DNA of 64,000 nucleotides from Elsinoe ampelina (taxonomy: Eukaryota). The notes beneath the pieces were generated by a model. It saw only the letters and a list, made by a program, of their open reading frames with translations, was not told where the DNA came from and did no database searches. Positions 12,788-60,202 of the stretch are shown here, one piece after another (the stretch's first letter is position 1; each line of letters opens with the position of its first letter). The position numbers and the translations under genes were made by a program. The DNA lies in contig ML992503.1 in the NCBI GenBank assembly GCA_010093995.1, positions 2,062,919-2,126,918 on the forward strand, read 5' to 3'.

Positions 12788-15160
12788 CTATATACTCATG
12801 TCAAAGTTAGTGGTATTCCACTCCGGTATGTCCAAGTTCTGGAAGAAGTCGCCATGATCTAGAGGGTACCAAAGTAATTCATCGAGGAGGAAGTTGGACT
12901 CTGTTCCGAACATATCAACAGCGTTGTATATAGTTAGAGATGTCGGACCATTCGTCGGTTGTACTTCCACTGCCGAGTGTTGTCCATCGCTTTCAAGACC
13001 TTGCCTGAGCGCGACGTTCTCTGGGTCCCTGGCCGGACTTTGCAGGCGGGTCACCGGTCTGGATCTGTCCGCTGTCCTCTGCTCGAATCTGGATTTCAGT
13101 TGCTGGGTGACGTGAACAAAAAGACGGTAGACCCAGCTGCCCACTGGCCATGAACTCTCCAGGACTTGCAGTCCAAGCATACATGTCCGGACCCTATTCT
13201 CTGCCAATTCTCGCTCGAGACGATGACCGGAGCACATCGTGTACAGATGCATAGCCAGTGCATTGAAAACTGCCGGTATCCTGGTCGCTGTCAGTGTTTG
13301 AGTCTGACGTAGCATAGGGATTACTTGCGTAAAGATCTGGCAGTATTGACCAATACCTGCAGATAGTATGTCTTCCACTACTCTGGTCACTTCGTTGGCT
13401 CCACGGGCAGCCTCTTCGCTATCGCCCCAATCTCGACTTTGGCCATCAGTGCCATTCCTGCGAGACGGGCGGCACAGCAACAACACAGCATAACTGTGTC
13501 AATCAGGATCATGAACTGTAGGAAGAGGGATCACTGCTTACTTGTAAGCAACCACGATCATTGCTTTCCAGAGATCGCTCTTGGTGTCGTCGCAGAAGCC
13601 ACGATAAGTCAGATTGCCTGGAAGATCAGCTCGAAATGTTTGTAGATCAGCTTTGAGTCGTAAAGTCTCTAAAGCACCAGATCTGGACTTTGATCCAGCC
13701 GAATACCTCGATTTTATTATGTCCGTCACTGTCTGGGTTAGTCTTTCTTGAAAAGTGATGCAGATGGTGAGAGTATCGAACTGATCTGGGATAGTCGTGC
13801 CATTCGGCAGGCATAGACGGTGTGCACTTGCTGCAAGGACGTCATCGCTGTCGGGAAGTCCTTCTCGTCCAACAGCTCCAAGTCACAATCACTTTCCGAA
13901 ACATGTTGTGGGCGGCCAATGGATCCCGAGACCAGCGCTTCCCGTATCTGAAGCTTCAGAGATAGCTAACAAGCACGTCTAATGGACTCACTCTGATGGA
14001 CCACCAGATCTTCTTCCAGCGGCTAGCCCTCATAGAGCTCATTCATGTCTGAATGTTTCGTGCTGGCTCGTTAGCTTTTTGACGACGATTGCGGCCAATC
14101 GACCTACGATCGATGCATACCCAAGCTCTGTGCCAGGCTTGCAGAAACGCCCAACCAATGCCATGTGTCCTTTGGATCGTCTGGTTTATCCCACCAGAAA
14201 CTCATCAAGAAGATGCTAGCGACCAGATCGGTTTGGTGCGGTTCAAGATCCTCATCATACAAACTTTTGGCTTGCTTGAAAAATATTTGTCTTGCCTTGT
14301 AACGATCTGCGGTACCAACAGCGGCGGACAGAAGGGTGTTGTCGCACACTGTCACCGCCACAAGCAGTACTGCATGAAGTAACAGCAGTGAAAACGTTTC
14401 GGACGCAACCCCTTGCTTCATCTGATCCGGGTCAATGACAGGGTAAGCCGGATGAAACCAAGTGAGATAGATATCAAGCAGATGCTCGAGATGGATTGAT
14501 TCCGGCATGAAATAATTCCCCAGACTTGTCAAGAATTCCTTTTGCCGGCATACCTTCGAGCGCCCGTCCTGGTCGGTAGTCGGGATTGGATGATGCAAGC
14601 GACTCCGATAGCCGGATGGATTCCCTAAGAATGGAGCAAGGACATCGTTGAGAACGTAGGTGAGACTGAAAGCCTCGCCGAGGAACATCACATTGTCGTT
14701 GGTGGCGATTGCTTTTCGACCTTGACGAACACCATGACGGGCGACAGTGGCATACAGCATGCCTGCATCATCTGCCGTCGGCCCGTCAGCTTCAAGCTCG
14801 ATCAGCCTTGCATGGTCGTGCCCATCTGTTGCAGATGTGGCAAGATCACTTCCTTGCTCGCCACCGATAGTACTCTCAGTCACGTTATCGCCGTTAGTCC
14901 TCCTTCGCTTGGAAGACCGAACACCCGAATTTGAGGTCCTTGAGTATCTAGATCATGTCAAATTTGAATCTCATGCCTTGCAACTTTTGGCCGCCGACAT
15001 ACTTGCCGCGCAGGGATTCGATCAGTACACAATCATGGCCGCCCGCAAGACACGTGCGGCAAGGTCCTGCCCCATCCGAGATGCACCGCGTCTTCCTGGT
15101 GTTGCACCTGACACATGCGATACGTGCACGCGCTTTCGGCGATTCATTCTGTACATTCAT
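12788..15160 (-). CDS. Zn(II)2Cys6 transcription factor with fungal-specific TF domain (CTF1-like), multi-exon
   Basis: ACVRCNTRKTRC...PCRTC...DC cluster near the ATG at 15160. Middle domain reads YLTWFHPAYPVID...LAQSLGMHR. Confidence 0.88.
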
Positions 15161-58635: not shown

Positions 58636-59581
58636 ACAAACGGATCCCGGTCTTGCTAAGCAACACCTGGATCAGCTCCAGAAAGAATCTCCCTAACTGA
58701 TTGTACGATTCATTCACCAAAGAGTCCAAGCCGGCAATCTTGCGGGGACGAGACCTCCCAGTGCTTTTGAGGAGCTGAAATAGCCTCTTGCTCTGCCTCG
58801 TGATCATGACCTGCGCATATCATGAGAGGTACCGAGCTGTGAGCCCGGAACCATGCCCTGGTGTTCCAGGATACAACCGCATTGCTTCGATACGGGCTGC
58901 GGATATGTCGCAATACTCCTGGTCTCACTACTAACAGCACTTTGGTCTCCTATGTCAGGCAGCCTGCATGTGAGTCGCGGGCTGGACGCAGTGGCTGCAG
59001 CCAGCCGAGTAGCAGGTTCGAGGGAGCACTGCATACGGTGGAAGTCGTATGGGCTGGTGAGCCTGTTCAGCCTAGTCAGACTTGCCCTATCGATGTAGCA
59101 GCATGAAGTGTGATGTTTGTTATGAAGCAAACGTCTGAGAAACCAGGGACGCTTCTACGCGCAGTGGAGGATATCTGTGGTGACGCTTCGAAGATGACTG
59201 CGACATCAGAGCGAAGCTCACTGGAGGATCGCAGGCTAGGTGCATTACATCAATTATTGTTGTAATTTGTTCGCTGGTTGTCCCAGACACCGCAGTGGAA
59301 TGGAGCTTTGTTCTCGCCATTCACACAATTGTCTGAGTTGCTACACCTTAGATATTCCATCGTATCACACCATTTGCTCACATTTGCTCACCTTGTTTTC
59401 CCCCCTTATAATTGAATCTGATGACCAGGATGAGCTGGTGTTGTCACAGCTGAATGGGGGAGTCTCGGCATACCGGTGGAAAGCTAAGCCGAGCCCCGAG
59501 ATGTACATTCATATTGTAGCAAATTTTTCAAACTGTTCTAAAATTCGCTACAGTCGTCCGACGGTGGTGATTTTTCTAAGA

Positions 59582-59724
59582 GGCGCTCTGGCCGAGTGGT
59601 TAAGGCGGCAGGCGAGTTTTCAGCTCGATCCAAGCGATATCCATGGACTAATAAGTATCAGACTCGAATGGCTCGATGTCATCTGCTCTCTTCGGAGGCG
59701 TAGGTTCAAATCCTGCGGGCGTCG
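59582..59724 (+). tRNA. tRNA-Ser(CGA) with two intervening sequences (59612-59661 and 59669-59680)
   Basis: Acceptor GGCGCTC/GGGCGTC with G73, A box TGGCCGAGTGG, B box GGTTCAAATCC, long variable arm CTC-TTCG-GAG. The anticodon arm GCAGA-CT-CGA-AA-TCTGC forms only after both inserts are removed (81-nt mature body). Confidence 0.9.
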
Positions 59725-59729
59725 TTTTT
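59725..59729 (+). terminator. RNA polymerase III terminator (T5)
   Basis: TTTTT immediately after the tRNA discriminator base. Confidence 0.8.
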
Positions 59730-60202
59730 GGACTTGTTTTGCTCTTTCAGAGTGACAGCGGACATTGTGGCGACAACCTGGGTTGTTGCCGCTGTTTTTG
59801 GGCTGGCTTGGAGTGGTTAAAGATTTGGTGAGGTGAGGTGATGAGGTTGTCGCAAATTCTGGTGTGGACCCCTGAAGCCATGCCGAGCCGCAGGGGTCAG
59901 CGAGCATGGTTTGATAGCTGCAACAGGTCTTCTACACTTTCTTGGAATCATAAACCATCCGCTAAAAGTGATGCATGGTGATCAGAATACTGTGTCCAAG
60001 TGGACTCTGTTCAACCTCTGAGCTGGGCAGATAGCAAAAACACTGTGAGCAATTTACCACCGCCGCAATCACGAGCAAACAGGGATCTTCGTGATCATAG
60101 GATAAGTCATGACATTATGTACCCTCCCTTACTATGCAGTCTTCCGTTCCAACCTTCTCACCAGTTTCCCCCTTCCTAATCCATCTCTCACCCGTCCCCT
60201 TA

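Follow-up and report, generated by a model that had tools for sequence, protein, structure and literature searches.

A putative spliceosomal-type GC–AG intron in the anticodon stem of a fungal tRNA-Ser(CGA) gene

Can a nuclear tRNA depend for its maturation on the machinery that splices mRNA? The question is raised by a tRNA-Ser(CGA) gene on the plus strand (59582-59724) of a 64-kb stretch of fungal DNA, the whole of which was analyzed and is termed the window here. Inspection of the sequence reveals an A box, a B box, G73, a T5 terminator, and two inserts. The shorter insert is a canonical 12-nt tRNA intron, and the longer one (50 nt) interrupts the anticodon stem and carries splice signals of the spliceosomal type. 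We lean toward reading the longer insert, from its sequence, as a genuine U2-type (GC–AG) intron in a nuclear tRNA-Ser(CGA) gene of a Dothideomycete that would be removed by the spliceosome before the tRNA endonuclease acts, with a working tRNA as the result. Some tRNAs, in other words, may need the mRNA splicing machinery to mature.

Anatomy of the interrupted gene

The gene and its flanking terminator are composed of the following features (coordinates are those of the window).

59582..59611, plus strand: exon 1, comprising the 5′ strand of the acceptor stem, the D arm, G26, and positions 27-30 (sequence, ARAGORN, MFE)
59589..59599, plus strand: A box TGGCCGAGTGG (Pol III internal promoter; sequence)
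59612..59661, plus strand: 50-nt putative GC–AG intron of spliceosomal type at tRNA positions 30/31 (sequence, composite scan)
59612..59617, plus strand: donor GCGAGT, preceded by exon CAG and with C at +2 as its sole departure from the window's GTRAGT donors
59647..59652, plus strand: branch box ACTAAT, with presumed branch A at 59651 (sequence, composite scan)
59659..59661, plus strand: acceptor CAG (the insert ends in TCAG), repeating the CAG that closes exon 1
59662..59668, plus strand: exon 2, ACTCGAA, comprising A31, C32, U33, the anticodon CGA (59665-59667), and A37 (sequence, ARAGORN, MFE)
59669..59680, plus strand: canonical 12-nt tRNA intron TGGCTCGATGTC at position 37/38 (ARAGORN, MFE of the intermediate)
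59681..59724, plus strand: exon 3, comprising A38, the 3′ strand of the anticodon stem, a long variable arm, the T arm, the 3′ strand of the acceptor stem, and G73 (sequence, ARAGORN, MFE)
59703..59713, plus strand: B box GGTTCAAATCC (sequence)
59725..59729, plus strand: T5 run, the presumed Pol III terminator (sequence)

Exon 1 combines the acceptor strand GGCGCTC with U8, G9, a Ser-type D arm (GCC-GAGTGGTTAA-GGC), G26, and GCAG, and its 3′ terminus reads GGCGGCAG, i.e., CAG. Exon 3 opens with A38, TCTGC, and a 13-nt variable arm containing a CTC/GAG hairpin, and continues with the T arm (GTAGG-TTCAAAT-CCTGC), the acceptor strand GGGCGTC, and G73 (59724). Both promoter boxes were assigned from their consensus sequences. 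When 59612-59661 is deleted in a script, ARAGORN cleanly recognizes tRNA-Ser(cga) and reports an additional 12-nt intron, which the program draws one base further right than 59669-59680. The 81-nt product lacking both inserts has a cloverleaf as its MFE structure; its variable arm is long, its 7-nt anticodon loop contains CGA, U33, and R37, and it has G73.

A canonical intron is found in eukaryotic tRNA-Ser(CGA) genes, such as the single yeast gene. The 12-nt intron is of this kind, displaying the 37/38 location, an anticodon-intron helix, and a C32-G pair, while the 50-nt insert differs in interrupting the stem at 30/31, away from the canonical position and beyond the ruler mechanism of the endonuclease. 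According to an excerpt of PMC10275265, the eukaryotic enzyme measures the distance from the tRNA body and as a rule cuts at 37/38. In the MFE structure of the intermediate without the 50-nt insert, C32 (59663) pairs with the antepenultimate intron nucleotide G59678, to which we applied the anticodon-intron pair rule as given in the same excerpt (PMC10275265), and U33-A36 (59664..59667) pair with 59676..59673 to form the anticodon-intron helix. As modeled, the intermediate that would remain after removal of the 50-nt insert thus looks like a normal endonuclease substrate. The MFE z-score of the pre-tRNA is 0.01, so the structure of the precursor is not unusual.

The 50-nt insert has the hallmarks of a U2-type intron, namely a GYRAGT donor that follows an exon ending in MAG (here CAG), a CTRAY branch at the distance usual for the host, a YAG acceptor, and a length within the host range. 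Its presumed branch A (59651) lies 10 nt before its last base, and its GC content is 0.44 versus 0.62 for the mature tRNA. Because CAG occurs at both ends of the insert, four cut positions would give an identical product, and only one of them yields GC...AG. Donor positions +2 to +7 can pair with 59622-59627 in a 6-bp hairpin, and the insert alone folds at -7.5 kcal/mol. A T4 run (59617-59620) directly follows the donor. Another T run, of five, was noticed at 59571-59575, 7 nt upstream of the tRNA start; the internal T4 run and the upstream T5 run could affect Pol III initiation or termination.

Short repeats were also observed around the two inserts. The 7-mer GCTCGAT is present in both the 50-nt insert (59622-59628) and the 12-nt intron (59672-59678), a coincidence for which we estimate a chance probability of about 0.02; it could reflect either a regulatory fold or a partial duplication by which the insert originated. 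CTCGA itself occurs three times (59624, 59663, and 59673) and is complementary to GCGAG of the donor, which allows several competing hairpins, one of them covering the donor.

The interrupted gene escapes standard annotation. ARAGORN in its default mode reports no tRNAs in the window, and Rfam gives no matches in the window at the gathering threshold; against the Rfam tRNA model, only the T arm of the native gene scores (13.4 bits versus a gathering score of 29). With introns allowed, ARAGORN proposes a tRNA-Glu(ttc) with a 48-nt intron. This call was rejected, since G26 would have to be followed by a 4-nt spacer and one arm would be aberrant. It arises because the segment 59612-59628 can form a stem with a 7-nt loop (GCGAG-TTTTCAG-CTCGA) that mimics an anticodon arm reading UUC. 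Reading the gene with a single long canonical intron and another anticodon was likewise rejected, since it would place G at position 33.

These results bear on several claims of an earlier note on this DNA. Its coordinates for the insert and its donor, branch, and acceptor motifs all agree with our inspection of the sequence, and its statement that precise removal of the insert restores tRNA-Ser(CGA) is borne out by ARAGORN on the deleted sequence and by the MFE cloverleaf. The note had also described all stems, the boxes, G73, and the T5 run as intact, which they are; it overlooked the canonical 12-nt intron at 37/38. Its expectation that tRNA scanners would miscall the gene was correct, given that ARAGORN returns nothing or Glu(ttc) and Rfam nothing.

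Local introns and a second interrupted gene

The window encodes Fungal_trans, Duc1, MFS, and Lon domains, which identify it as fungal. The nearest proteins to the product of the neighboring Duc1 gene come from Elsinoe species and other Dothideomycetes, with 96% identity over 40% of the query for one match, followed by 86% and 72% over the full length. To compare the insert with introns of the mRNA type, a composite signal of 44-65 nt, opening with GYRAGT, closing with YAG, and containing RCTRAY with the A 8-14 nt before the end, was searched for on both strands of the 64-kb window. The scan retrieved 11 composites, compared with 0.96 +/- 0.93 in 100 Markov-1 shuffles. Nine are of the GT type, with GTGAGT or GTAAGT as donor; they are 44-51 nt long, and their branch A lies 9-12 nt before the end. 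A separate scan with permissive criteria showed that six of these nine also connect two open frames, each of 60 codons or more. The tRNA insert, at 50 nt and with its branch A 10 nt before the end, falls in the middle of this distribution. At fixed boundaries, the joint probability that donor, branch, and acceptor occur by chance is about 4e-7, as estimated from base composition.

Similar signals are documented in another fungal genus. In the excerpt of PMC5677156 that we used, introns of Fusarium core genes have the donor G100 Y(T99/C1) A74 A42 G93 T66, with GC donors at ~1%, a CTRAY branch in 91%, and the acceptor YAG.

Only two composites of the GC type are present in the window, the tRNA insert and a 48-nt segment on the minus strand at 13281-13328 (GCAAGT...ACTGAC...CAG), which lies in frame within the open ORF of a Fungal_trans-type gene. 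The latter is probably a chance match and could alternatively be an optional, retained GC–AG intron. Its position in frame inside an open ORF led us to reject it as a verified GC–AG mRNA intron, and none was found in the window.

A second, unrelated interrupted tRNA-Ser(CGA) gene was found by scanning metagenome contigs with a pattern comprising a Ser D-loop 14-mer, a gap of 45-75 nt, CTCGAA, a gap of 15-45 nt, and the B-box consensus. The pattern contains no splice signal. The collection comprises 241 million records and yielded one locus (L001), which means that the arrangement is either rare or poorly sampled.

360-496 of the metagenome contig, minus strand: tRNA-Ser(CGA) of L001, on an AT-rich contig (pattern scan, ARAGORN)

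The locus has a GC content of 0.39, and no ORF longer than 95 aa occurs in the 1484 nt examined of its 4091-nt contig. Its tRNA possesses an acceptor stem GTCAGTT/AGCTGAC, an anticodon stem ATTGA/TCAAT, a variable arm of its own, a perfect B box, G73, and a T8 terminator, and it lacks an intron at 37/38. The insert, located at 31/32, is 56 nt long, starts with GTACGT, contains CACTAAC with its A 12 nt from the end, and ends in CAG; the probability of these splice signals arising by chance is about 2e-7. When the insert is deleted in a script, ARAGORN calls tRNA-Ser(cga). Without the deletion, the locus reaches 43.2 bits against the Rfam tRNA model, which absorbs the insert into the loop. A single long canonical intron was rejected for L001, as it would give G32/U37 and the anticodon ACG in a Ser-type body. 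Since the pattern demanded the D-loop, anticodon-loop, and B-box motifs, their intactness in L001 is by construction, and what was unforced are the stems, the terminator, and the splice signals.

The two inserts have no sequence in common and are situated one position apart (30/31 versus 31/32). Judged by sequence, they look like independent gains, and as such they are uninformative on conservation within a lineage.

Scans of other collections added no comparable gene. The specific pattern had no match in genome_contigs. A general pattern for Ser-tRNAs with long inserts matched once in viral_contigs, where two adjacent tRNA-like genes gave a false match, and four times in genome_contigs, where two of the four were discarded as chance upstream matches beside bacterial tRNAs. 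The other two (L004 and L006) are contigs of Aenigmarchaeota MAGs and presumably carry archaeal tRNA-Ser genes with bulge-helix-bulge (BHB) introns.

Alternative explanations

The strongest competitor is that the gene is disabled. An intron or introner-like element would have entered one copy, the Pol III transcript would remain unspliced, and the locus would be a young pseudogene while another copy supplies the tRNA. The T4 run inside the insert and the hairpin over the donor are in keeping with such a transcript, and the 3-nt CAG repeat at both insert ends resembles an insertion footprint. The nearest proteins belong to Elsinoe and other Dothideomycetes, a class with introner-like elements; their occurrence in Dothideomycetes was reportedly described by van der Burgt et al. 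in 2012. Introner-like elements are multi-copy, comparatively long, strongly structured, and recently gained, and they bring complete splice signals. The insert resembles them in its complete splice signals and in the fungal class of the nearest protein matches, but differs in having a length of 50 nt, a folding energy of -7.5 kcal/mol, and no second copy in the 64-kb window. In blastn against the window, it returned its self-match and otherwise only matches of 8-14 nt, at chance level; the missing further copy is a weak argument, as it concerns the window only. Also against a disabled gene, the stems are all intact, as are the two promoter boxes, G73, and the terminator. The stems, variable arm, and terminator of L001 are intact as well, although they lay outside the search pattern. 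We regard a disabled gene as unlikely.

A different possibility is that the insert is a non-canonical intron cut by the tRNA splicing endonuclease via a relaxed BHB and that the spliceosome-like motifs are coincidental. Such introns have a precedent, for some eukaryotes possess non-canonical and multiple tRNA introns, and in nucleomorphs and a red alga, BHB motifs decide the non-canonical sites (excerpt of PMC4090602). A BHB has two 3-nt bulges that bear the cut sites, with a 4-bp helix between them and a further helix on each side. The window gene was examined for a BHB in both topologies at the four equivalent cut positions (8 configurations). A 4-bp central helix, CGAG (59613-59616) with CTCG (59663-59666), can form only at the GC...AG boundaries, with the 3-nt bulges AG|G and AG|A on either side, as in the core of a BHB. 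However, the outer and inner helices of the window gene pair at only 2/4 and 1/4, and a 4-bp match among 8 configurations is expected by chance in ~15% of cases by our own estimate. L001 has no BHB, its central helix pairing at 2/4 in both topologies. An endonuclease origin would also leave the joint occurrence of donor, branch, and acceptor (about 4e-7) to coincidence, and no report of non-canonical endonuclease introns in fungi was found in the literature searched. For both inserts, the endonuclease is a weak alternative, and for the window gene we consider it improbable.

It is also conceivable that splicing is spliceosomal but that the substrate is a sense Pol II read-through transcript, with RNase P and RNase Z cutting the tRNA from the spliced RNA. 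The locus does appear to be transcribed, as a contig of run X3 (presumed RNA) spans 59300-59885 with a 56-nt skip. The splice orientation of this contig, however, is antisense to the tRNA, and the 50-nt insert is kept in it. Furthermore, the gene is equipped with A and B boxes and a T5 terminator of its own, and no sense Pol II transcript was seen. We therefore think a Pol II origin of the substrate very improbable.

The X3 contig merits separate description. It skips 59418-59473 (56 nt), a segment with the ends CT..AC that correspond to GT..AG on the minus strand, and shows no other differences. It probably derives from a spliced Pol II transcript that runs antisense over the tRNA gene; alternatively, the skip is a 56-bp deletion in that strain. 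As an antisense transcript or the product of a deletion, the contig is uninformative on splicing of the sense strand. No long minus-strand ORF was found near 59418-59473. Contigs of runs X4, X5, and X6 cover only 59300-59381 or less.

The weakest explanation is a random insertion that carries the motifs by coincidence. In its favor, roughly one composite is expected by chance in each window, and the segment at 13281-13328 is probably such a match. Here, however, the match must fall exactly on the tRNA-restoring boundaries (about 4e-7), and the coincidence recurs in L001 (about 2e-7); we consider this explanation very unlikely indeed.

Proposed maturation, known systems, and implications

Under the reading we prefer, removal by the spliceosome followed by the endonuclease, Pol III, acting through the internal A and B boxes, would produce a precursor of ~143 nt ending at the T5 run. 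Nuclear pairing of U1 with CAG|GCGAGU and of BBP/U2 with ACUAAU would follow. The intron would be released as a lariat, and the joining of G30 to A31 would close the anticodon stem. The product would be an ordinary intron-containing pre-tRNA-Ser(CGA), from which SEN endonuclease and tRNA ligase would then excise the 12-nt intron. What is inferred in this scheme is that the precursor comes from Pol III, that it is a substrate of the spliceosome, and that the endonuclease step comes second. The evidence directly in hand consists of the gene anatomy, the match to local introns, a second gene of like build, and the finding of no convincing endonuclease motif. Several features of the locus weigh against the scheme. 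The internal T4 run could weaken read-through by Pol III, the gene's own terminator being only a T5 run; a GC donor is rare (~1% in Fusarium, per the excerpt of PMC5677156); and the donor can be locked in a 6-bp hairpin. As to how the insert arose, it could have been reverse-spliced into the tRNA with subsequent retro-recombination, or an intron-like element could have been inserted there. Either origin is compatible with the CAG repeat of 3 nt at the two ends.

The more general proposition, that spliceosomal introns can colonize tRNA genes and that at least two distant eukaryotes make tRNA-Ser(CGA) via the spliceosome, with the window gene then passing to the endonuclease, strikes us as evenly poised. 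The earlier note had likened the insert in size and layout to the mRNA introns of the window, a likeness that the figures uphold (50 nt and a branch at 10 nt, against 44-51 nt and 9-12 nt). The sequence-level parts of its spliceosomal reading find support in the donor, branch, and acceptor, the size and spacing, L001, and the weak BHB. It had also named no established case in a tRNA. Likewise, the literature that we searched, which lacks most subscription journals, contained no description of a tRNA gene with a spliceosomal intron, so that an older report could exist.

The closest known systems are small non-coding RNA genes. In S. pombe, the spliceosome excises an intron from the Pol III transcript of the sole U6 gene, according to an excerpt of PMC5855946, which also lists U1, U2, U5, and rRNA genes, but not tRNA, as hosts of spliceosomal introns. 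Like the introns of S. pombe U6 and of other fungal U6, U1, U2, and U5 genes, the insert described here places canonical signals inside the gene of a small structured non-coding RNA. In contrast to U6, the tRNA host is no component of the spliceosome, the gene additionally contains an intron of the endonuclease type, and splicing of the insert is proposed from its sequence. With such a host, the usual explanation, by reverse splicing into an RNA of the active site, is not obviously applicable.

Another parallel is offered by ribosomal genes, spliceosomal introns having reportedly been found in the rDNA of ascomycetes by Bhattacharya et al. in 2000. They too interrupt the gene of a structured RNA in filamentous ascomycetes without Pol II transcription, but their host is a Pol I rRNA gene, in contrast to the Pol III tRNA gene here. 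The BHB introns of archaea, Cyanidioschyzon merolae, and nucleomorphs share with the insert a location outside 37/38, including 30/31, and the occurrence of more than one intron per gene (excerpt of PMC4090602). They differ in being defined by a BHB and cut by the endonuclease, whereas in the genes described here a BHB is half-formed or absent and the spliceosomal signals are complete.

If the preferred reading is true, tRNA would be the third non-coding host class for spliceosomal introns after snRNAs and rRNA, and an abundant Pol III RNA without a role in the spliceosome would be able to gain and keep such an intron. This would bear on the origin of new introns, by reverse splicing versus element insertion. 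Two unrelated splicing systems would act in turn on one 143-nt RNA.

Such genes would also be ones to which standard tRNA finders are systematically blind. For tRNAscan-SE 2.0, the excerpt of PMC8450103 describes a search for non-canonical introns for the archaeal model. Because tRNA finders in eukaryote mode ignore introns of this type, fungal isoacceptors that seem to be "missing" may hide more cases.

A final consequence concerns decoding. UCG accounts for 29 of the 116 Ser codons (25%) in three long ORFs of the window, so tRNA-Ser(CGA) should matter to this fungus. Under the preferred reading, decoding of UCG may depend on the spliceosome, in which case translation of one codon, the common Ser codon UCG, would be coupled to splicing capacity.
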